This document shows, in pieces, positions 7,630 to 16,273 of a stretch of DNA of 64,000 nt. The DNA lies in contig CAZGAZ010000008.1 in NCBI GenBank assembly GCA_964523835.1, forward strand, positions 2,792 through 66,791. The letters are read 5' to 3'. Below the pieces are notes generated by a model. The model searched no databases. It had not been told where the DNA came from and saw only the letters and a program-made list of their open reading frames with translations. The position numbers were made by a program, and so were the translations under genes. Each line of letters begins with the position of its first letter. Position 1 is the first letter of the stretch. This DNA is from an uncultured Ruminococcus sp. (GTDB taxonomy: Bacteria; Bacillota; Clostridia; Oscillospirales; Ruminococcaceae).

Positions 7630-8382
7630 ATGAAAACACCCGAAATTATATTTTTTGATATAGGGCACACCCTTACATATTCCCCCGAAAAATGCAAGGA
7701 AAACGGCTTTGCCGCTTTATGGGAGCACAGGTCGGGGAACTGCGGCTGCACATATGAAGAACTGCTCGGGCGGGCGGAAAAAATTTTCCGTGATGTGGAT
7801 ATTGTGGCGGATTCCTTTGATTATGACATTCCCTTTGCTGCCTCTTTAAAGCTGCTTTTTGACAGTGCGGGGGTGGTGCTTGATATACCGCCGCAGGATC
7901 GGGAAAGGGTTTTTCTGAATACCGCACGGCCTGCCGTCCCCATGCCGGGGGCGGTAGAGATGATAAGCTTTTTGCGGCAGCAGAAAATAAGACGGGCGGT
8001 CATTACCAACAACCGCTTTTCCGAGGAGGCTTTGCTGCGGCAGCTGTGCGGCATTTTCGGGGAGGGTGCGTTTGAGTTTGTGATATCCTCGGCGGATTAT
8101 ATGGTGCGAAAGCCCGACAAGAGGCTGTTTGAGGCGGCGCTGCACAGGGCGGGAGTTTCTCCCGGGGCTGCGTGGCACTGCGGCGATATGGCAAATGCAG
8201 ATGTTATGGGGGCGCATTATATGGGTATTTTCCCGGTGCTTTATGAAACGAATGAGGTGGATAATCCATTTCTGCGGTTCAACAAGGGTTTTGAGGCGGA
8301 TTTCCCCTTTGAGAGGATTTCCTGCTGGAAAGAACTGTGTCAATTAATAATTAATAATGAGCGGGGCGGGTGGATTTGCTGA
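7630..8382 (+). CDS. HAD-superfamily hydrolase
   Basis: FFDIGHTL motif I, ITNN motif II, RKPD motif III, HCGDMANADVMGA motif IV. Confidence 0.9.
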   Translation: MKTPEIIFFDIGHTLTYSPEKCKENGFAALWEHRSGNCGCTYEELLGRAEKIFRDVDIVADSFDYDIPFAASLKLLFDSAGVVLDIPPQDRERVFLNTARPAVPMPGAVEMISFLRQQKIRRAVITNNRFSEEALLRQLCGIFGEGAFEFVISSADYMVRKPDKRLFEAALHRAGVSPGAAWHCGDMANADVMGAHYMGIFPVLYETNEVDNPFLRFNKGFEADFPFERISCWKELCQLIINNERGGWIC

Positions 8383-8514
8383 ACGGTAAATTAAAATGCG
8401 AAAATGCTTTAGATAAATTTTCGGTTTACAGGAAAGGTAAAAAATCAAGATATGTCAATCATTATTAATTATTAACTATTAATTATTAATTAATTTTTGT
8501 GAGGTGTTTTTACA

Positions 8515-9843
8515 ATGAGAGAATACAAGACCCAGATGGAGGCGGCAAGAAAGGGGATAATCACTCCTGAAATGGAAAAGGTGGCAGAGAAAGAATACAG
8601 ATCTCCCGAGGAAATTCGTGAAAAGGTAGGCAGGGGAGTTGTTGCCATTCCTGCAAATGTGAACCACAAATCCCTTTCGCCCGAGGGTATAGGCGAGGGG
8701 CTGCGGACGAAGATAAATGTTAATTTAGGCGTATCGGGGGACTGTCGGGACTATGACAGGGAAATGGAAAAGGTGCGGCTTTCGCTGAAATACGGGGCGG
8801 AGTCTATTATGGATCTGAGCAACTGCGGCAAGACGAATATGTTCAGGCAAAAGCTTATTGAAATGTCCCCCGCTATGATAGGCACTGTGCCCATGTATGA
8901 CGCTATAGGATATCTGGAAAAGGATCTGCCCGAGATAACCGCAGAGGATTTTCTTAAGGTGGTAAAGGCGCACGCCGAGGAGGGTGTGGACTTTATGACA
9001 ATTCATGCAGGGATAAACAGACGTGCGGTGGAGGCTTTCAGGCGGCAGGGGAGGAAGATGAATATTGTTTCCAGAGGGGGTTCGCTGCTGTTTGCATGGA
9101 TGGAGATGACGGGGAATGAAAACCCCTTTTACGAGCATTATGACGAGGTGCTGGAGATACTGCGTGAATATGATGTGACGATAAGCCTTGGGGACGCTTT
9201 GCGCCCCGGGTGCATTTCCGACGCCACGGACGCAGGGCAGACAGCTGAGCTTATCGAGCTTGGAAACCTGACGAAACGGGCTTGGGAAAAGGACGTTCAG
9301 GTAATGGTGGAGGGGCCGGGGCATATGGCTATGAATGAGATTGCCGCAAATATGACCCTTCAGAAGCGGCTTTGTTACAATGCGCCTTTTTATGTACTGG
9401 GACCGCTTGTTACCGATATTTTCCCGGGGTATGACCACATAACGAGCGCTATAGGCGGAGCTGTTGCGGCGGCAAACGGGGCGGATTTTCTCTGCTACGT
9501 TACCCCTGCGGAGCATTTGCGTTTGCCCGATATTTCCGACGTTAAGGAGGGGATAATGGCAAGCAAGATTGCGGCTCATGCGGCGGATATTGCAAAGGGT
9601 GTGCCCCATGCCCGTGAAAAGGACGACGAGATGGCGGCTGCCCGTCATGCGGTGGACTGGGAGCGTATGTTTGAGATTGCCGCAGACGGGGAAAAGGCAA
9701 GGGAATATTTTGAAAGCACCCCTCCTGCCGACCGTCACACCTGCTCTATGTGCGGAAAAATGTGCGCTGTGCGGACTACCAATATGATCCTGGAGGGGAA
9801 AGAGGTCAGGCTTTGCGGCGAGGCGGGAAAAAGCGAGAAGTGA
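8515..9843 (+). CDS. thiC: Phosphomethylpyrimidine synthase
   Basis: [37 protein letters not shown] Fe-S motif. Confidence 0.97.
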
Positions 9844-9965
9844 TTTTTGCGGTATGCCGTATGCCGATATGCTTGGGCGATTTTGACGGATTTATGTTTG
9901 ACGGATTTGAACGCCGAAGCTGAAAATATAGGAATTGCGATGTGCAAATGAAATCGAGGGTAAAA

Positions 9966-10598
9966 ATGAATGAGAATATAACTCTTTACGGGATAACAGG
10001 GAATTGCCCGCTGCCTTTGGAAACGGCTGTGGAGGCGGCTTTGCGAGGGGGAGTGGGAATGGTGCAGCTGCGGGAGAAAAATATAAGTGATGAGGAATAT
10101 GTGCGCAAGGCAAAAATGCTTCTGAGCGTCACGGGAAAATACAATGTTCCGCTGATAATCAACGACAGCGTGAAAGTTGCCCTTAAATCGGAGGCGCAGG
10201 GGGTACATCTGGGGCAGACGGACGGCAGTCCCTTGGAGGCAAGGAAAATTTTAGGGGAAAATGCCGTTATCGGCGTTACCGCAAAGACTGTGGAAATGGC
10301 TGTAAAGGCGGAAAGGGACGGTGCGGATTATCTGGGCTGCGGGGCGGTTTTCGGGTCGGTTACTAAGGAAAACGCTGTGCCTATGAAAATGGAAACGCTA
10401 AGGGATATTTGCGCTGCGGTAAGCATTCCCGTGTATGCTATCGGGGGGATAGACACCTCGAATGCAGGGCTTCTGAAAGGCACGGGCATTCGGGGAATTG
10501 CTGTAGTTTCGGCGATATTCGGAAAAAGTTCCTTTGAAGATATAAAGGCGGCGGCAGGTCTGCTGAAGAAAATATCCCTTGAAATTTCGGGGGATTGA
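9966..10598 (+). CDS. thiE: Thiamine phosphate synthase
   Basis: VQLREK, LIIND, GVHLGQTD, ADYLGCGAVFGSVTK, AIGGI; start at ATG after GAGGG. Confidence 0.95.
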   Translation: MNENITLYGITGNCPLPLETAVEAALRGGVGMVQLREKNISDEEYVRKAKMLLSVTGKYNVPLIINDSVKVALKSEAQGVHLGQTDGSPLEARKILGENAVIGVTAKTVEMAVKAERDGADYLGCGAVFGSVTKENAVPMKMETLRDICAAVSIPVYAIGGIDTSNAGLLKGTGIRGIAVVSAIFGKSSFEDIKAAAGLLKKISLEISGD

Positions 10599-10630
10599 AA
10601 AGCAAGTGCGCTATGCAAGAGGAAGATGAT

Positions 10631-11449
10631 ATGAAAGAAAACGTTAAACCGATACTGTCGGTGGCAGGGTCGGATTCTGTCGGCGGGGCGGGGATTCAGG
10701 CGGATATAAAGACGGTTTCCGCTTTGGGGCATTATGCCATGACGATCGTTACTGCCGTGACGGCGCAGAATACGCTGGGAGTTCGGCTTTGGGAGGCGGT
10801 TTCCCCCGGGATGATGAAGGCGCAGTTGGAGGCGGTTTTTGAGGATATCCCTCCGGCGAGCGTTAAGATAGGAATGGTGGGGAATGGGCAGAATGCGTCG
10901 ATAATTGCCGATGAGCTTGTTTTGTATAATGCAAAAAATATTGTCTGCGACCCGGTGCTCTCGGCGACAAGCGGGGACGGGCTGACGGGAGATGAGGGCA
11001 TAAAGGTTTTGACCGAGCGGATATTTCCCATTGCGGATATAATTACACCGAATATTCCCGAGGCGGAGCGGATTTGCAATATGCAAATCGGGAGCGTGTC
11101 CGATATGGAAAGGGCGGCGGAGAGGCTGTCGGCTGTTACCTCGGGGGCGGTGCTTATAAAAGGGGGACATTTGTGCGGCGAGGGGGCAATGGCTGTAGAA
11201 ACAGCGGCTTCGGAGGCTGTTGATATCCTGCTTTATGAGGGGGAATTTTACAGGTTTACATCTCTGCGTATCAATAATCCCAACACTCACGGCACGGGCT
11301 GCACGCTTTCTTCTGCCATTGCCTGCGGGCTGGCGGAGGGGAAAGATATTCCCGAGGCGGTGCGGTATGCAAAGGATTATGTTACGAGGATCATTGGCAA
11401 TAACTTTGACATAGGGCATGGGAGAGGCTCAATGTGGCATTTTGACTAA
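10631..11449 (+). CDS. thiD: Hydroxymethylpyrimidine/phosphomethylpyrimidine kinase
   Basis: AGSDSVGGAGIQADIKT, TAQNT, ITPNIPEAE, HGTGCTLSSA. Confidence 0.96.
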   Translation: MKENVKPILSVAGSDSVGGAGIQADIKTVSALGHYAMTIVTAVTAQNTLGVRLWEAVSPGMMKAQLEAVFEDIPPASVKIGMVGNGQNASIIADELVLYNAKNIVCDPVLSATSGDGLTGDEGIKVLTERIFPIADIITPNIPEAERICNMQIGSVSDMERAAERLSAVTSGAVLIKGGHLCGEGAMAVETAASEAVDILLYEGEFYRFTSLRINNPNTHGTGCTLSSAIACGLAEGKDIPEAVRYAKDYVTRIIGNNFDIGHGRGSMWHFD

Positions 11450-11597
11450 AATATGAAATGCCCGATTGTGTATTCCCACAAACTTTACACGCAAACGAAA
11501 CATTTTAAGGGTTTGATTTGTTTATTATTCAGTGAGATCATGTGTCCGTAATGCAAAAACATGACGACCCTAATAATAAAATTCGGGAGTGTATAAA

Positions 11598-12662
11598 ATG
11601 AAAAAACACATCATGACTGCCGCTTACTCCGCAGCGCACTTTTTTGTGGACCTGGCTTGTGCATTTTTAATATTCCGCTCGGTTTATGACGGGCGGGGAG
11701 AGCTTTTGCTCTACTATAATTTCTGCGCCTTTGCCCTGCAAATGCCCATAGGAGTGCTGCTGGACAGGTTCGGCAAGGGGCATCTGGCGGCGGCGCTCGG
11801 CTGTCTGCTTATAGGGACGGCGTTTCCGCTGTCAATGTTACAGGGGTCAAATTTAGCAGCTGCGGTGGTTTTGGGTGTGGGAAATTCTCTGTTCCATTTA
11901 GGGGGCGGGGTGTATGTGCTGGACGAGTATGAGAAGTCGGGGGCGCTGGGGGTGTTCGTTTCCCCGGGGGCGATAGGTCTTTATCTGGGGACGGTATGGG
12001 GCAAAGGGACGGAGTTTTCGACTACGGCGGTCATGGCGGTTATGATTGTATGGGCGGCGGTTTTCCTGCTGCTGCCGAGGGTACTGCGGTTTGAAAATCC
12101 TTTTGGGGCTGCGGCGGAAGTGCATGAAAATGTGTCCGATAAAATGACGTCGGCGACGATGTCGCCAATGCTTATCTTGGCGTCGGGAATGTTTACGGCG
12201 GTGGTCGTTATCCGCAGCTTCGGGGGATTTGCGGTAAGTCTGCCTTGGAAAACGGCGGGGGCGGCGGCTTTGGCGGCGGTGTTTGCCACGGCTTCGGGCA
12301 AGGCTGCGGGGGGATATTTATCGGACATTTTCGGGAAAAAGCCTGCCTCGGCGGTCTCCATGGGGGCGGCGGCGCTGCTGTACATATTTTCGGGGAATAT
12401 GCTGCCCGGGCTGCTTGCGGTGTTCCTTTTCAATATGACCATGCCCATAACTCTGAGGGCGGCGGCGGATATTATGAAAGGAAACAGGGGTTTTTCCTTC
12501 GGACTGCTTACATTCGGGCTGTTTCTCGGGTATATTCCCATGTATCTGAACGGGGGACTGAGGATAAGCGGCGGGGTTATGGCGGCGCTTTGCGTTTTGT
12601 CGGGGGCACTGCTGTTCGGGGGCTGGAAATTAATGGATAATGAAGTAAAAAAAGGTGAATGA
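11598..12662 (+). CDS. MFS-like multi-pass membrane protein
   Basis: About 11-12 hydrophobic segments; G-x-L-x-D-R/I-F-G motif in both halves (GVLLDRFG, GYLSDIFG); start at ATG after GGGAG. Confidence 0.75.
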   Translation: MKKHIMTAAYSAAHFFVDLACAFLIFRSVYDGRGELLLYYNFCAFALQMPIGVLLDRFGKGHLAAALGCLLIGTAFPLSMLQGSNLAAAVVLGVGNSLFHLGGGVYVLDEYEKSGALGVFVSPGAIGLYLGTVWGKGTEFSTTAVMAVMIVWAAVFLLLPRVLRFENPFGAAAEVHENVSDKMTSATMSPMLILASGMFTAVVVIRSFGGFAVSLPWKTAGAAALAAVFATASGKAAGGYLSDIFGKKPASAVSMGAAALLYIFSGNMLPGLLAVFLFNMTMPITLRAAADIMKGNRGFSFGLLTFGLFLGYIPMYLNGGLRISGGVMAALCVLSGALLFGGWKLMDNEVKKGE

Positions 12663-12711
12663 CGGCAAGTGTTTTATATTCACGCTGAAAAGATTTTTAA
12701 GGGGGACTGAA

Positions 12712-13050
12712 ATGACTGTAAGAATAATCGCTGCTATGGGAATTTCCTTGGGGCTGACAATTTTGCTGGAGCTGTTGTTTGCTTTTTTTGCGGGCGTCCG
12801 TGGGAACGGGCTGAAGGTGAACGTTCTTTGCAATATCCTTACAAATCCGCTTGTTACAAGCATTTACTATTTCTGCAAATACGGGCTTATGCTGCAGGTT
12901 GGGGTTATGACAATAATTACCGCAGCGCTGGAAATTGCCGCTGTGATAACCGAATGGCGGGTGTATAAGGTCTGTACGGATATTAAAAAACCGCTGCTCT
13001 TTTCCATAGGCGCTAACTGTTTTTCATATTTTATAGGCTTGCTTCTTTAG
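12712..13050 (+). CDS. Small 4-TM membrane protein with intramembrane polar residues (LTxxxE, NxLTNP, ExxxxxxE, ANxxS)
   Basis: ORF track 12655..13050; better RBS (AGGGGGA) before ATG 12712; four hydrophobic helices. Confidence 0.8.
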   Translation: MTVRIIAAMGISLGLTILLELLFAFFAGVRGNGLKVNVLCNILTNPLVTSIYYFCKYGLMLQVGVMTIITAALEIAAVITEWRVYKVCTDIKKPLLFSIGANCFSYFIGLLL

Positions 13051-13101: not shown

Positions 13102-13260
13102 ATGGAACATATCGGAAAGCTTTATGATTTGGTCTATGAACCGCCCGTTATAAACGTCAATTCCACAGAGCTGCCCGGGTGGGCTATGCCTGCGCTTATA
13201 GCTTGCGGTGTTGTTATCGCAGCGGCGGTGATTGTGAAGATTATAAAGGGAAAAAAGTGA
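13102..13260 (+). CDS. 52-aa single-TM microprotein (MEHIGKLYDLVYEPP...LPGWAMPALIACGVVIAAAVIVKIIKGKK)
   Basis: Translated by hand; GGAGAG RBS, ATG, TGA; TM segment followed by Lys tail; absent from the ORF track (<60 aa). Confidence 0.75.
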   Translation: MEHIGKLYDLVYEPPVINVNSTELPGWAMPALIACGVVIAAAVIVKIIKGKK

Positions 13261-13273
13261 AAGGGGAAGTTAA

Positions 13274-13429
13274 ATGAATGACCTTATGTATGTGATATTT
13301 GCAGACGGGGTCGCTGACCCGTTTTCATATGCCGTTTACGAGTTCGAGGAGTTTCTGCCCGTTATACTGCTTATTGCGGCTGTGATAGTTGTTACGGTCA
13401 TAATAATAAAAAAGAGTAAAAAGAAATAG
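13274..13429 (+). CDS. 51-aa single-TM microprotein (MNDLMYVIFADGVADPF...FLPVILLIAAVIVVTVIIIKKSKKK)
   Basis: Translated by hand; AAGGGG RBS 7 nt upstream; paralog of the next ORF. Confidence 0.8.
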   Translation: MNDLMYVIFADGVADPFSYAVYEFEEFLPVILLIAAVIVVTVIIIKKSKKK

Positions 13430-13448
13430 GGTGAGGGGGGAAAATCAA

Positions 13449-13595
13449 GTGAACTGTGTGATATTTGCGGACGTGGTTTTTGACCCGTTTAAAATTGCGG
13501 TTTACGAGATAAGGCATAAGCTGCCTTTGATACTGCTTATTGCGACTGTGATAATCGTCACGGTCATAACAATAAAAAAGAATAAAAAGAAATGA
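13449..13595 (+). CDS. 48-aa single-TM microprotein (MNCVIFADVVFDPF...KLPLILLIATVIIVTVITIKKNKKK)
   Basis: Translated by hand; GTG start after GAGGGGGG; nucleotide paralog of 13274..13429 with the frame preserved. Confidence 0.75.
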   Translation: MNCVIFADVVFDPFKIAVYEIRHKLPLILLIATVIIVTVITIKKNKKK

Positions 13596-13605
13596 GGAAT
13601 CTATC

Positions 13606-14484
13606 ATGAAAAGAAAAAGAATTTTAACAGTAATTTCGGCGATACTGGCTTGCTGCACGGTGGCAGCGGCAGGAACAACGGTGTGGGCGGACGACGATGA
13701 TGTACTGACGCCCCCTCAGGACAGCTTTTACGAGCTTTACGAAAGCCAGTGCGAGCTTCACGATTACAGAAGCTTCAGGGCTGCGGTTGATTTCGATGTA
13801 TTTGCAAGTCCCATTGACCAGAGAAGCGTAAGGCGTGTAGGCGTGGGAGAGGTCATTTCCACCAATGTTTCCTATACCGCCCCTGACGGCGTTATCTGGA
13901 GCTATGCTTATTCGGAAACAGGTATTGGCGGCTGGTTCAGAATGGAAAATGTCTCCCTTGTTTACGACAGTATTGCATTCACCGAGGAACATCAGAACGA
14001 GCTTACTCCCTATGCGGGGCAGCTGGACGGCTTTTCGCCTACGGCATATCTTTATCTGTGGACATATCCCGGTTCGGGAGAGGCGGAGAATATCTGCCGT
14101 GCGGGTGATGAATGGTTCACCAACGGAGATGTTCAGAATCTGGGCGAGCGTGCGGCTTATGTTTACAGGGACGCCGGCGGCAGCGAATGGGTTTATCTTG
14201 ATTTCCTGCCGAGCGGCTGGGTATATGTTCCGAATCCCGAGGCAGATCTGCGCAGCGGCGTTCCTGCGGTCAATGTGAATAATAATACAAACAATGACGA
14301 GGAACTGGGGGACACTTTATTTGAAGATGTTGAGGCGGGTGCTGCAATTGTCGGCGTATCGGCTGCCGATGTATCGGCAAGTTCATCGGCAAATGATTAT
14401 ACACTGCCGCTGGGGCTTTCTGCCGTTCTTGCGGCGGGGATTACGGCTGCAAAGAAAATCAAAAAAGAGAGGACGAATGAATGA
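13606..14484 (+). CDS. Secreted, C-terminally membrane-anchored protein, paralog 1 (YD.I.F.EEH / WTYPGSGE family)
   Basis: Sec signal peptide ending VWA; C-terminal LP-hydrophobic-KKIKK tail; shares blocks with the next two ORFs. Confidence 0.85.
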   Translation: MKRKRILTVISAILACCTVAAAGTTVWADDDDVLTPPQDSFYELYESQCELHDYRSFRAAVDFDVFASPIDQRSVRRVGVGEVISTNVSYTAPDGVIWSYAYSETGIGGWFRMENVSLVYDSIAFTEEHQNELTPYAGQLDGFSPTAYLYLWTYPGSGEAENICRAGDEWFTNGDVQNLGERAAYVYRDAGGSEWVYLDFLPSGWVYVPNPEADLRSGVPAVNVNNNTNNDEELGDTLFEDVEAGAAIVGVSAADVSASSSANDYTLPLGLSAVLAAGITAAKKIKKERTNE

Positions 14485-15356
14485 AAATGAAAAGGACAGC
14501 ATTGTTAAAGCTTATGACGGGAATATTGGTTTCCTGTACAGTCATGCTTTGCGGGACAAGTGTGTTTGCAGACATCATTGCGGCTCCTCCGCACAACACG
14601 AGATTTTACGAGCTTTATCATGATGAATGCGAGCATGAAAATCGTGAAAGAGGTTACAGTGCTCTGACGGATTTTAACACATATATGAGCCCCCTCAGCG
14701 ATCAGGTCGTTCGGCATATTAATAAAGGGGACGTTCTGCATTCCAATACCTTTTACACCGACAGCGAGGGAGTGCGCTGGGCTTATGATTACAACTGGGA
14801 CTGGGATGACGTTACAAAAGCCGGCTGGTACAAAACGGAAAATGCCATACTTATTTATGACAGTATTTCCTTTGAGGAGGAGCATAGGGACGAGTTTGTG
14901 TATAACAAAGGTCAGCTGAATGATTATACTCCCGAAAAACAAGTGGTTTTCTGGACATATCCCGGTTCGGGAGAAATTGATTTTATCGTTTCCAAGGAAG
15001 AATGGATACCCAAAAAAGGTTATGTCGACATAACGGATAAAACCTATGCCGATGAGAATGGAGATGAATGGCTGTATATCGCACGGGGTTTCCGCAGCTG
15101 GGTAAATCTCTCCGACATTGAGGGAGAGAATGCAGCCGAAATGCAGGGCGAAAGGATATACGTTACCACCGAGGCTATTGAAGAGGCTTACGAACCGGCT
15201 TTAGCCGTCTCGAATATTCCCATTTCCGACAGAGATGAAAAGTCGGATTTCCTGCTGCCGATCATTCTCGCCCTGTGCGCTGCCGCAGCTGCGGGAGGCT
15301 TCCTTCTCGGTATCATGGCTGAAAAGAAAAATAAGAAAGCGAGGACGAATGAATGA
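14481..15356 (+). CDS. Secreted, C-terminally membrane-anchored protein, paralog 2
   Basis: Signal peptide ending VFA-DIIAAPP; DSEGVRWAYDY, YDSISFEEEH, WTYPGSGE; DFLLP-TM-KKNKK tail; ATGA overlap with upstream gene. Confidence 0.87.
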   Translation: MKMKRTALLKLMTGILVSCTVMLCGTSVFADIIAAPPHNTRFYELYHDECEHENRERGYSALTDFNTYMSPLSDQVVRHINKGDVLHSNTFYTDSEGVRWAYDYNWDWDDVTKAGWYKTENAILIYDSISFEEEHRDEFVYNKGQLNDYTPEKQVVFWTYPGSGEIDFIVSKEEWIPKKGYVDITDKTYADENGDEWLYIARGFRSWVNLSDIEGENAAEMQGERIYVTTEAIEEAYEPALAVSNIPISDRDEKSDFLLPIILALCAAAAAGGFLLGIMAEKKNKKARTNE

Positions 15357-16237
15357 AAATGAAAAGGACAGCATTGTTAAAACTTATCACGGGAATATTG
15401 GTTTCCTGTACGGTTCTGCTTGGCGGGACAAGAGTGTTTGCGGACGTTATCGTTGAGCCTTGGGGAGAAAGCGCTGATTTTTACGTGCAGCACATCAGTG
15501 AATGCGAGCTTGAATATTTTGGGAGAAATTACAGTGCGCTGAAGGATTTTGACATATTGACCAGTCCGCTCGGCGAGACCGTGCGGCACGTACAAAAGGG
15601 CGATGTTCTGTATTCCAATGTCATTTACACCGACAGCGAGGGGGTGCGCTGGGCTTATGACTACAACGGTGAAGATACGGAAAAAGCCGGTTGGTTCAAA
15701 ATGAAAGATGTTGAGCTTGTTTACGACCGTATTTCTTTTGAGGAGGAACATAAGAGCGAGTTTGACGAATATAAAGGTCAGCTGAATGATTATGTGCCCC
15801 AAAATTATGTTATTCTTTGGACATATCCGGGTTCGGGAGAGATAAAAGAGGTATGTCCCCGGGAAACATGGTTTATCGATGGTTATGTGTTTACATTAGA
15901 TGAAACGGCAATGTACACTTATTTTGATGAAAGCGGAATTGAATGGGTGTATCTGGGCTATGGCTTCTATGGCTGGGTCGATCTCTCCGACATTGAGGGC
16001 GAGGCGTACACCGAAGAAGCCGCCGAAACGACTATGTCCGAGGACAGCAGGGTATACGTTACCACCGAGGACATTCAGGAGGCTTCCGAAATGGTCTTAG
16101 CTATCTCGGATATCCCCGAGCCGCCCGCTCCCGACGGGAAAGACAAGCCGGATTTCCTGCTGCCGATAGTTCTCGCCCTGTGCGCTGCCGCTGCTGCGGG
16201 AGGATTCCTTGTGGGAACTAAACGGAAAAAGCCGTAA
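15353..16237 (+). CDS. Secreted, C-terminally membrane-anchored protein, paralog 3
   Basis: Signal peptide ending VFA-DVIVEP; same conserved blocks; DFLLP-TM-KRKKP tail; ATGA overlap. Confidence 0.87.
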   Translation: MKMKRTALLKLITGILVSCTVLLGGTRVFADVIVEPWGESADFYVQHISECELEYFGRNYSALKDFDILTSPLGETVRHVQKGDVLYSNVIYTDSEGVRWAYDYNGEDTEKAGWFKMKDVELVYDRISFEEEHKSEFDEYKGQLNDYVPQNYVILWTYPGSGEIKEVCPRETWFIDGYVFTLDETAMYTYFDESGIEWVYLGYGFYGWVDLSDIEGEAYTEEAAETTMSEDSRVYVTTEDIQEASEMVLAISDIPEPPAPDGKDKPDFLLPIVLALCAAAAAGGFLVGTKRKKP

Positions 16238-16241
16238 AAAT

Positions 16242-16273
16242 ATTCCCCGCCCGAAAAAGGACGGGGAATTTTT
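16242..16273. terminator. Probable bidirectional intrinsic terminator
   Basis: ATTCCCCG...CGGGGAAT hairpin with A/T runs on both sides, between convergent genes. Confidence 0.7.

Follow-up and report, generated by a model that had tools for sequence, protein, structure and literature searches.

Transporters of the TRAP (tripartite ATP-independent periplasmic; DctQ-DctM-DctP) and TTT (tripartite tricarboxylate transporter; TctB-TctA-TctC) types place a small protein of four transmembrane (TM) helices beside a secondary transporter of about 12 TM helices, to which it is sometimes fused, together with extracytoplasmic or membrane-anchored partners and no ATPase. In the copper uptake system CopC-CopD (YcnJ)/YcnI of Bacillus subtilis, a signal peptide and a beta-sandwich with a conserved first mature residue precede a membrane domain or anchor, and fused and split forms coexist. 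Glu, Asn, Gln, Ser, Thr and Tyr are ligands at the Na+/H+ sites of ATP-synthase c-rings and at the Ca2+/Na+ sites of SERCA and NCX/CAX. Here we describe a gene whose product and neighbours recall each of these systems. It encodes a 112-amino-acid (aa) protein, P0001 (hereafter also the 4TM protein, for its four TM helices), and lies in a 64,000-nucleotide stretch of DNA from an uncultured Ruminococcus sp. (contig CAZGAZ010000008.1, positions 2,792 to 66,791), which we call the window. An initial annotation had taken the protein for a candidate intramembrane enzyme. We tentatively favour, with slightly less than even confidence, another reading: P0001 may be a small transporter subunit whose buried ladder of carboxylates, amides and hydroxyls binds or conducts a cation.

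The P0001 gene is real and under purifying selection. Its closest relative, a protein from a Ruminococcus metagenome-assembled genome (MAG), is 88% identical, and the ratio of nonsynonymous to synonymous substitution rates (dN/dS) between them is 0.18. The initial annotation had described an open reading frame (ORF) of about 112 aa, and all of the segments that it quoted (LGLTILLE, CNILTNP, ALEIAAVITEW and GANCFSY) were found in the translation. A longer version starting from a GTG at 12655 is not supported, because the homologues begin at the same MT.. start as P0001.

An exhaustive search for the family with a profile hidden Markov model (HMM), covering 1.84 billion cluster representatives (50% identity clusters), revealed 1,258 stand-alone clusters at E<=1e-3 and 403 at E<=1e-10, nearly all of 105-120 aa. 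A word-indexed search gave only seven relatives. We aligned 131 diverse homologues (alignment A2), which were 29-59% identical to P0001. Seven positions (T16, E20, N45, E74, E81, N102 and S105) were invariant among them, and S12, L13, N41, T44, P46, Y85, P94 and G109 were conserved in at least 90%. The invariance of the buried Glu, Asn and Thr residues, to which the initial annotation had drawn attention, was thus confirmed across the 131 homologues. The family signature consists of T-x3-E in TM1, N-x2-T-N/Q in TM2, E-x6-E-x3-Y in TM3 and N-x2-S-x3-G in TM4. It is complete in P0001 and invariant or nearly so in A2, in an alignment of fused relatives (A4, see below) and in 47 genomic loci. E20, N41, E74, E81 and N102 were kept in all 47 aligned loci, one very divergent member included.

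No model of Pfam-A or NCBIfam consistently matched P0001 or the 131 diverse members, and neither these two databases nor PHROGs and PADLOC contained a family to which the 4TM protein or the fused proteins related to it could be assigned. A PDB sequence-profile search was empty both for A2 and for the alignment of the upstream partner (A3, see below). In the ESM Atlas, the matches were unnamed clusters only, and we found no literature on the family or on the module around it. With no Pfam, NCBIfam or PDB relative, the 4TM protein is, as judged from sequence, a distinct and uncharacterised family, which agrees with the distinct family suspected initially. The same genome holds a second, partial 4TM copy (contig C51:33-182; locus L002:3-185), which comprises TM3-TM4 only and is 40% identical. 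This copy sits at the start of its contig in sequence of higher G+C content and may be of either the fused or the stand-alone type. By eye, the ORF downstream of it resembles the C-terminal part of a threonyl-tRNA synthetase.

Given the 131-sequence alignment, AlphaFold2 (AF2) modelled P0001 as a four-helix bundle with a mean pLDDT of 94.7 (for the helix limits, see Table 1). The mean number of Lys plus Arg residues was 2.8 in loop 1 and 3.1 in loop 3, as against 0.17 at the N-terminus, 0.67 in loop 2 and 0.04 at the C-terminus. Because of this bias, the positive-inside rule places both ends of the protein outside the cell, and the predicted N-out/C-out topology is also the orientation demanded by all three types of natural fusion that we describe further on. 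Each helix shows a single stripe of conserved residues with i/i+3/i+4/i+7 spacing, as expected of a bundle core. By their distance from the cytoplasmic ends of the helices, E20, N41, E81 and Y85 fell in the inner third, T16, T44, N45, E74, N102 and S105 in mid-membrane and S12 in the outer third. It seems from this periodicity and residue depth that the polar residues form a ladder across the bundle and not a single pocket. A Foldseek search with the P0001 model gave no match at E<=0.001. The best VIA-align Z-score for this model was 9.2, which is under the value of about 13 that the tool names as helical-bundle noise.

The strongest partner of the 4TM gene, which the initial annotation omitted, is the gene directly upstream. 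It encodes a protein resembling permeases of the major facilitator superfamily (MFS); its MFS_1 score of 31.5 bits is just below the Pfam cut-off of 33.4. Motif-A-like GxxxDRxGK sequences are kept in both halves of the protein, from which it probably still cycles as a transporter. In A3, the alignment of MFS-like proteins, C24, Y43, Q51, N99, H103, R209, W220 and K238 were invariant and H17 was conserved in at least 90%; position 21, as read from the alignment, was Asp in most rows and Glu in two. In MFS folds, the central cavity is lined by TM1, TM4 and TM7, and these helices hold the conserved H17 and D21 as well as the invariant C24, N99, H103 and R209. These residues could represent a transition-metal site, or a combination of Cys, His and Arg as in sortase-type enzymes. 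In one locus, the MFS-like gene is split into two overlapping ORFs (L053:4760-5822), for which a frameshift, a pseudogene or a sequencing error is possible.

We sampled 12 loci within the same taxonomic family, and scanning species-representative genomes added 34. The scan loci came from Ruminococcus, Acutalibacteraceae, Oscillospiraceae, Lachnospiraceae, Erysipelotrichaceae and other Bacilli, as well as from MAGs labelled Gastranaerophilales, Chloroflexi and Tenericutes. Among the Lachnospiraceae was Hungatella hathewayi DSM 13479, a cultured strain whose genome is complete (module at about 837-850 kb of NZ_CP102274.1). An MFS-like homologue adjoined the stand-alone 4TM gene in 44 of the 44 surveyed loci, one Gastranaerophilales MAG being among the carriers, and in 45 of 45 when one later locus was included; the sampled loci are phylogenetically related, and these counts show consistency and not independent events. 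In most loci, the MFS-like gene overlaps the 4TM start or ends within a few bases of it. Within a 200-genome sample of the taxonomic family, all 10 genomes with a stand-alone 4TM match had the MFS-like gene. On closer inspection, one seemingly MFS-only genome with an intact locus also carried an anchored protein and a divergent 4TM gene, and this is the 45th locus. In the other seemingly MFS-only genome, the MFS-like gene lies on the end of a 4.3-kb contig. All-against-all clustering of the neighbours over the loci revealed no recurrent family besides the single-pass proteins described below, and no conserved ATPase, enzyme or regulator. The module is self-contained.

Natural fusions join the 4TM domain to its partners. 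Three independent clusters (P0157, P0158 and P0159) are MFS-4TM fusions. As both profiles overlap on one helix, TM12 of the MFS part doubles as TM1 of the 4TM part, and this shared helix runs from outside to inside in both roles. In P0153, the 4TM protein continues straight into an anchored protein through an AAAD-LIWTP junction. The 4TM domain also forms the C-terminal part of a fused family of about 295 aa, of which 951 proteins were found at E<=1e-3 among the candidates scored (for example, L027:8021-8914 on the minus strand and loci L087-L096). Its members have a signal peptide, a near-invariant mature N-terminus D-x-G-P-K-P-S and a beta-sandwich ahead of the 4TM domain. In A4, D28, P31 and K32 were invariant and G30, P33 and S34 were conserved in at least 90%. 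The 4TM domain of this family matched A2 in hhalign with 99.1% probability (E 1.6e-18) and kept the ladder, as T187/E191, N213/T216/Q217, E244/E251/Y255 and N280/S283/G287. Its beta-sandwich gave weak Ig-like or transthyretin-like matches only (Foldseek, VIA-align).

At least 33 of the 44 surveyed loci also encode single-pass proteins, in which a C-terminal TM helix is followed by a stretch of Lys and Arg; 11 of the 44 had no obvious partner of this kind. Their genes lie between the MFS-like and 4TM genes or flank them, and their products fall into microproteins of 42-60 aa, proteins of 68-104 aa with a signal peptide, and proteins of 250-640 aa. An Asp-led motif stands at the predicted mature N-terminus (arrow), A↓D-V-I-x-E-P in the Clostridia-type and A↓D-M/V-G-x-P in the Bacilli-type proteins. 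The Clostridia-type microproteins have no signal peptide and carry the same Asp motif 3-14 residues from their start. The motif is absent from those Bacilli-type microproteins whose genes follow the MFS gene directly. In the partners with a signal peptide, ordinary AxA-type signal peptidase I sites precede the Asp. The three paralogues of about 292 aa in the window belong to a Clostridia-type cluster found in 16 homologous loci. They had no Pfam match, and one relative in the cluster scored weakly for SH3_3 (21.2 bits, cut-off 27). Clear SH3_3 (SH3b) matches of 33.9-47.7 bits came from larger proteins of a separate Bacilli-type cluster.

The initial annotation had proposed that P0001 acts on adjacent proteins with an "LP" tail. 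A functional tie to these neighbours is supported by synteny in most loci and by the fusion in P0153. The "LP" sorting signal before the C-terminal helix was rejected, since the residues before the partner anchors vary freely with no conserved motif. We also looked for co-variation of 4TM position 12 (Ser; Arg in the fused family) with the type of Asp motif, and no clear pattern emerged. In one locus, the protein encoded after the 4TM gene (L055:1474-2259) has a signal peptide and an ADALSP start, and a Zn_Ribbon_1 domain (32 bits) at its end replaces the Lys-rich tail.

Having established the conservation, fold, topology, synteny and fusions of the 4TM protein, we propose the following arrangement. 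The core of the module would be the divergent MFS-type permease, and P0001 would be its small integral subunit. On behalf of the transporter complex, the ladder of oxygen ligands in P0001 would bind or conduct the coupling ion or another cation, be it H+, Na+ or a hard divalent metal. The single-pass proteins would be further components, joined through their TM helix and the Asp-led motif (D-hydrophobic-hydrophobic-x-E/D-P or D-M-G-x-P), and not proteolytic substrates. Several observations led us to favour this as the simplest reading. There are three invariant, uncompensated Glu residues with amide and hydroxyl partners in a minimal bundle, and three uncompensated carboxylates in such company are what a buried cation site typically offers as ligands. 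In addition, the pairing with a motif-A-bearing MFS-type permease is obligate, with occasional fusion, and there are no energy-supplying or enzymatic neighbours. Of the two functions suggested initially, catalytic or ion-binding, the latter fits the data better.

Several observations weigh against a transporter subunit. A second conserved surface stripe, which would mark an MFS interface, was not found on the 4TM protein. Fold searches with the models of both P0001 and the fused protein gave generic four-helix-bundle matches only, with best Z-scores of 9.2 and 9.7. Five genomes of the fused family, 95-100% complete, contained no MFS-like gene that we could find, and the fused genes themselves occur in variable contexts with no conserved neighbours. 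The 4TM domain can therefore work without an MFS partner. Ion binding and the formation of a physical complex are steps that we infer.

Because of the MFS-free fused family, an autonomous role of the 4TM domain stays alive, although we consider it unlikely. The domain would be a cation channel or metal permease in its own right, receiving the ion from the free N-terminal Asp (amine plus carboxylate) of an extracytoplasmic domain. This domain would be present in cis in the beta-sandwich fusions and in trans in the single-pass proteins, the MFS-like protein would have a separate activity, and the arrangement might be analogous to CopC-CopD/YcnJ and YcnI. The Asp-led mature N-terminus is indeed the sole feature that accompanies the 4TM domain in both fused and stand-alone contexts, and in the MFS-like protein, two His, one Cys and one Asn occupy cavity positions that are invariant or nearly so. 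Metal-related genes occur near some loci as well. There are presumed FeoB-like genes about 1.3 kb downstream in four related loci (L033, L036, L038 and L042, at about 7650-9900) from Oscillospiraceae/Clostridia MAGs, and presumed CsoR-, CopZ- and CopA-like genes after the module in a single genome (L020:8483-11437), all assigned by eye from N-terminal sequences. However, these neighbours are confined to a few loci that are themselves related and show no conservation, neither a metal-responsive regulator nor a riboswitch was detected, and a metal theme around the module is possible but weak. The Pfam-recognised domain of the partners in trans is SH3b, which usually binds the cell wall and is no known metallochaperone. 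This role would also leave unexplained why the stand-alone form is so strictly paired with an MFS-like gene. In a further arrangement, which we regard as improbable, a tethered peptide would operate the bundle as a new ion-conducting or ion-sensing element. This peptide, a free N-terminus that starts with Asp, would belong to a single-pass protein that binds the wall or to the protein's own beta-sandwich and would reach into the outer mouth of the bundle, and cell-wall events would thereby be coupled to the ion path and the MFS-type transporter.

Proteolysis, the activity proposed in the initial annotation, found no supporting evidence, the ladder spanning several depths and the comparison with CPBP profiles being negative. 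In its general form, this idea makes P0001 a new type of intramembrane hydrolase with a Glu/Glu or Glu/Asn site, which processes the single-pass proteins, for example by removing a leader to make Asp residue 1. The intramembrane Glu and Asn are invariant, the putative substrates are co-located with and fused to the 4TM protein, and the microproteins, which lack a signal-peptide h-region yet have 3-14 residues before the Asp, would suit a dedicated leader peptidase. We nevertheless give it little probability. No peptidase family of Pfam or NCBIfam was matched, and His, Asp and Cys are not conserved at any position of the 4TM family. The polar residues are placed in the cytoplasmic half of the membrane and at its middle, whereas the Asp motif is outside it; the partners with signal peptides already have signal peptidase I sites; an obvious substrate is missing from the 11 loci mentioned above; and the MFS partner is not accounted for. 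The CPBP/Rce1 family (PF02517) in particular is ruled out. Its members resemble P0001 in their membrane-embedded Glu and Asn, and in Firmicutes they are often found beside small membrane or secreted proteins. The EExxxR, FxxxH and HxxxN motifs are all missing from P0001, as was noted initially. It has no EE pair but the single E20, E74 and E81, none with a conserved Arg at +4 or +5; it contains no His, and A2 has no conserved one. Canonical CPBP genes, 13 in number, are present in the same genome, and their EExxFRG, FGxxH and HxxxN motifs are clear. PF02517 matched these 13 and not P0001 (no hmmscan match at E<=1), nor any of the 131 members, and hhalign of A2 against the 13 genes gave 0.7% probability.

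A passive role as a scaffold or assembly factor, stabilising or anchoring the MFS-like and single-pass proteins, would agree with the small size, minimal loops, constant partner and fusions of P0001, the polar residues then serving helix packing. Three invariant, uncompensated intramembrane Glu residues are costly, however, and rarely kept for packing alone, and the fused family retains this ladder although it has no MFS partner. We thus hold this role to be distinctly improbable. A membrane enzyme or flippase for a lipid-linked or polyprenyl-phosphate substrate, with Mg2+ held by the Glu/Asn cluster at the cytoplasmic leaflet, appears very improbable to us. Such a protein might be likened to DgkA or CdsA and would serve the cell-wall-related partners. 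Glu, Asn and Tyr residues and a conserved loop Arg (R30) do lie near the cytoplasmic interface, the partners bear wall-binding SH3b domains, and weak likenesses were seen to the N-terminal four-helix bundle of WbaP (Z 9.7, rmsd 3.0, 112 residues) and to CdsA (Z 7.3). But such Z-scores are expected for any helical bundle, the 4TM protein has no cytoplasmic domains or nucleotide-binding motifs, and no conserved genes of cell-envelope biosynthesis lie nearby.

The coordinates of the module are given in Table 1. Directly upstream of it (window 8515-11449) are three ORFs that by eye resemble thiC, thiE and thiD. A thiamine link of the module was rejected because neither the window nor nine homologous loci yielded a thiamine pyrophosphate riboswitch (Rfam gathering score or E<=1) and because the thi genes accompany the module in the closest relatives only. 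A thi operon without this riboswitch is unusual for Firmicutes. A shared upstream regulatory motif was likewise rejected, as a k-mer count over 43 upstream regions gave A/T-rich words only.

Table 1. Positions of the P0001 gene, its predicted helices and the neighbouring features in the window.
Feature	Coordinates	Strand	Basis or remark
Gene of the 112-aa four-helix membrane protein (P0001)	12712..13050, stop codon included	+	ORF, conservation, AF2, dN/dS
Shine-Dalgarno sequence AGGGGG	12700..12705	+	6 nt before the P0001 ATG, read from sequence
TM1 of P0001 (aa 2-26), with S12, T16, E20	12715..12789	+	conservation, AF2
TM2 of P0001 (aa 32-58), with motif N41-x-x-T44-N45-P46	12805..12885	+	conservation, AF2
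TM3 of P0001 (aa 63-88), with E74-x6-E81-x3-Y85	12898..12975	+	conservation, AF2
TM4 of P0001 (aa 94-111), with P94, N102, S105, G109	12991..13044	+	conservation, AF2
Divergent MFS-like permease, 357 aa from GTG (alternative ATG 11598)	11589..12662	+	MFS_1 score, alignment A3, co-occurrence
52-aa single-pass microprotein, DLVYEPP motif, TM helix, KGKK tail	13102..13260	+	
51-aa single-pass microprotein, DGVADP motif, TM helix, KKSKKK tail	13274..13429	+	
54-aa single-pass microprotein, DVVFDP motif, TM helix, KKNKKK tail	13431..13595	+	
292-aa secreted protein with C-terminal membrane anchor, paralogue 1	13606..14484	+	
291-aa anchored paralogue 2, predicted mature N-terminus DIIAAPP	14481..15356	+	
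294-aa anchored paralogue 3, predicted mature N-terminus DVIVEP	15353..16237	+	
G+C-rich hairpin just past the last gene of the cluster (end 16237)	16242..16269	.	reported as terminator-like on the minus strand only

The 4TM family spans gut and rumen Clostridia and Bacilli, plus a few MAGs labelled as other phyla. If its pairing with the MFS-like protein is functional, the module would represent an MFS-based transporter of heteromeric build, in which a small subunit binds the ion and single-pass proteins are accessories. To our knowledge, a heteromeric transporter with such a subunit is undescribed for bacterial MFS proteins. The module also gives a functional frame to the conserved neighbouring microproteins. 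The invariant 4TM residues are direct targets for mutagenesis, and the carriage of the module by H. hathewayi DSM 13479 makes the question directly testable. Should the tethered-peptide arrangement be true, it would be a three-part machine without a described counterpart, functionally between the energisers of the MotAB/Tol type and the tripartite transporters.

The 4TM protein showed no membership of several other known families. A holin or phage protein is not indicated, with no PHROG match, no Pfam holin family and no endolysin or phage genes nearby, and the PADLOC defence models matched neither the 4TM protein nor the MFS-like protein, one anchored protein and the fused forms. The small multidrug resistance (SMR) proteins EmrE and Gdx are similar in length (about 110 aa), in their four TM helices and in a Glu of TM1 that looks essential. 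However, no 4TM member matched the Pfam family Multi_Drug_Res. The charge bias (2.8 and 3.1 versus 0.67 or less) fixes one topology, whereas SMR proteins are of dual topology or antiparallel, and the 4TM family has three Glu, three Asn and an obligate large partner.

As regards the systems introduced at the outset, the likeness to CopC-CopD/YcnI lies in architecture. The first mature residue is Asp here and His there, the membrane part is a four-helix Glu/Asn bundle and not CopD, and there was no sequence or clear fold match. The buried mid-membrane ligand sets of c-rings, SERCA and NCX/CAX resemble the putative ligands of the 4TM ladder, but the folds are unrelated. The TRAP and TTT transporters share with the module the small four-helix protein beside, and sometimes fused to, a secondary transporter of about 12 TM helices, the extracytoplasmic or anchored partners and the independence from an ATPase. 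They differ in that the 4TM members have no Pfam match to the DctQ or TctB families, and that the large subunit here is MFS-like (only MFS_1 scored) instead of DctM or TctA. The partners here are microproteins of 42-60 aa or anchored SH3b proteins, with no solute-binding-protein family detected, and the fusions run in the order large-small with one helix shared. By analogy, the module may work most like TRAP and TTT, as a heteromeric secondary transporter with a small subunit, although it is not homologous to them.

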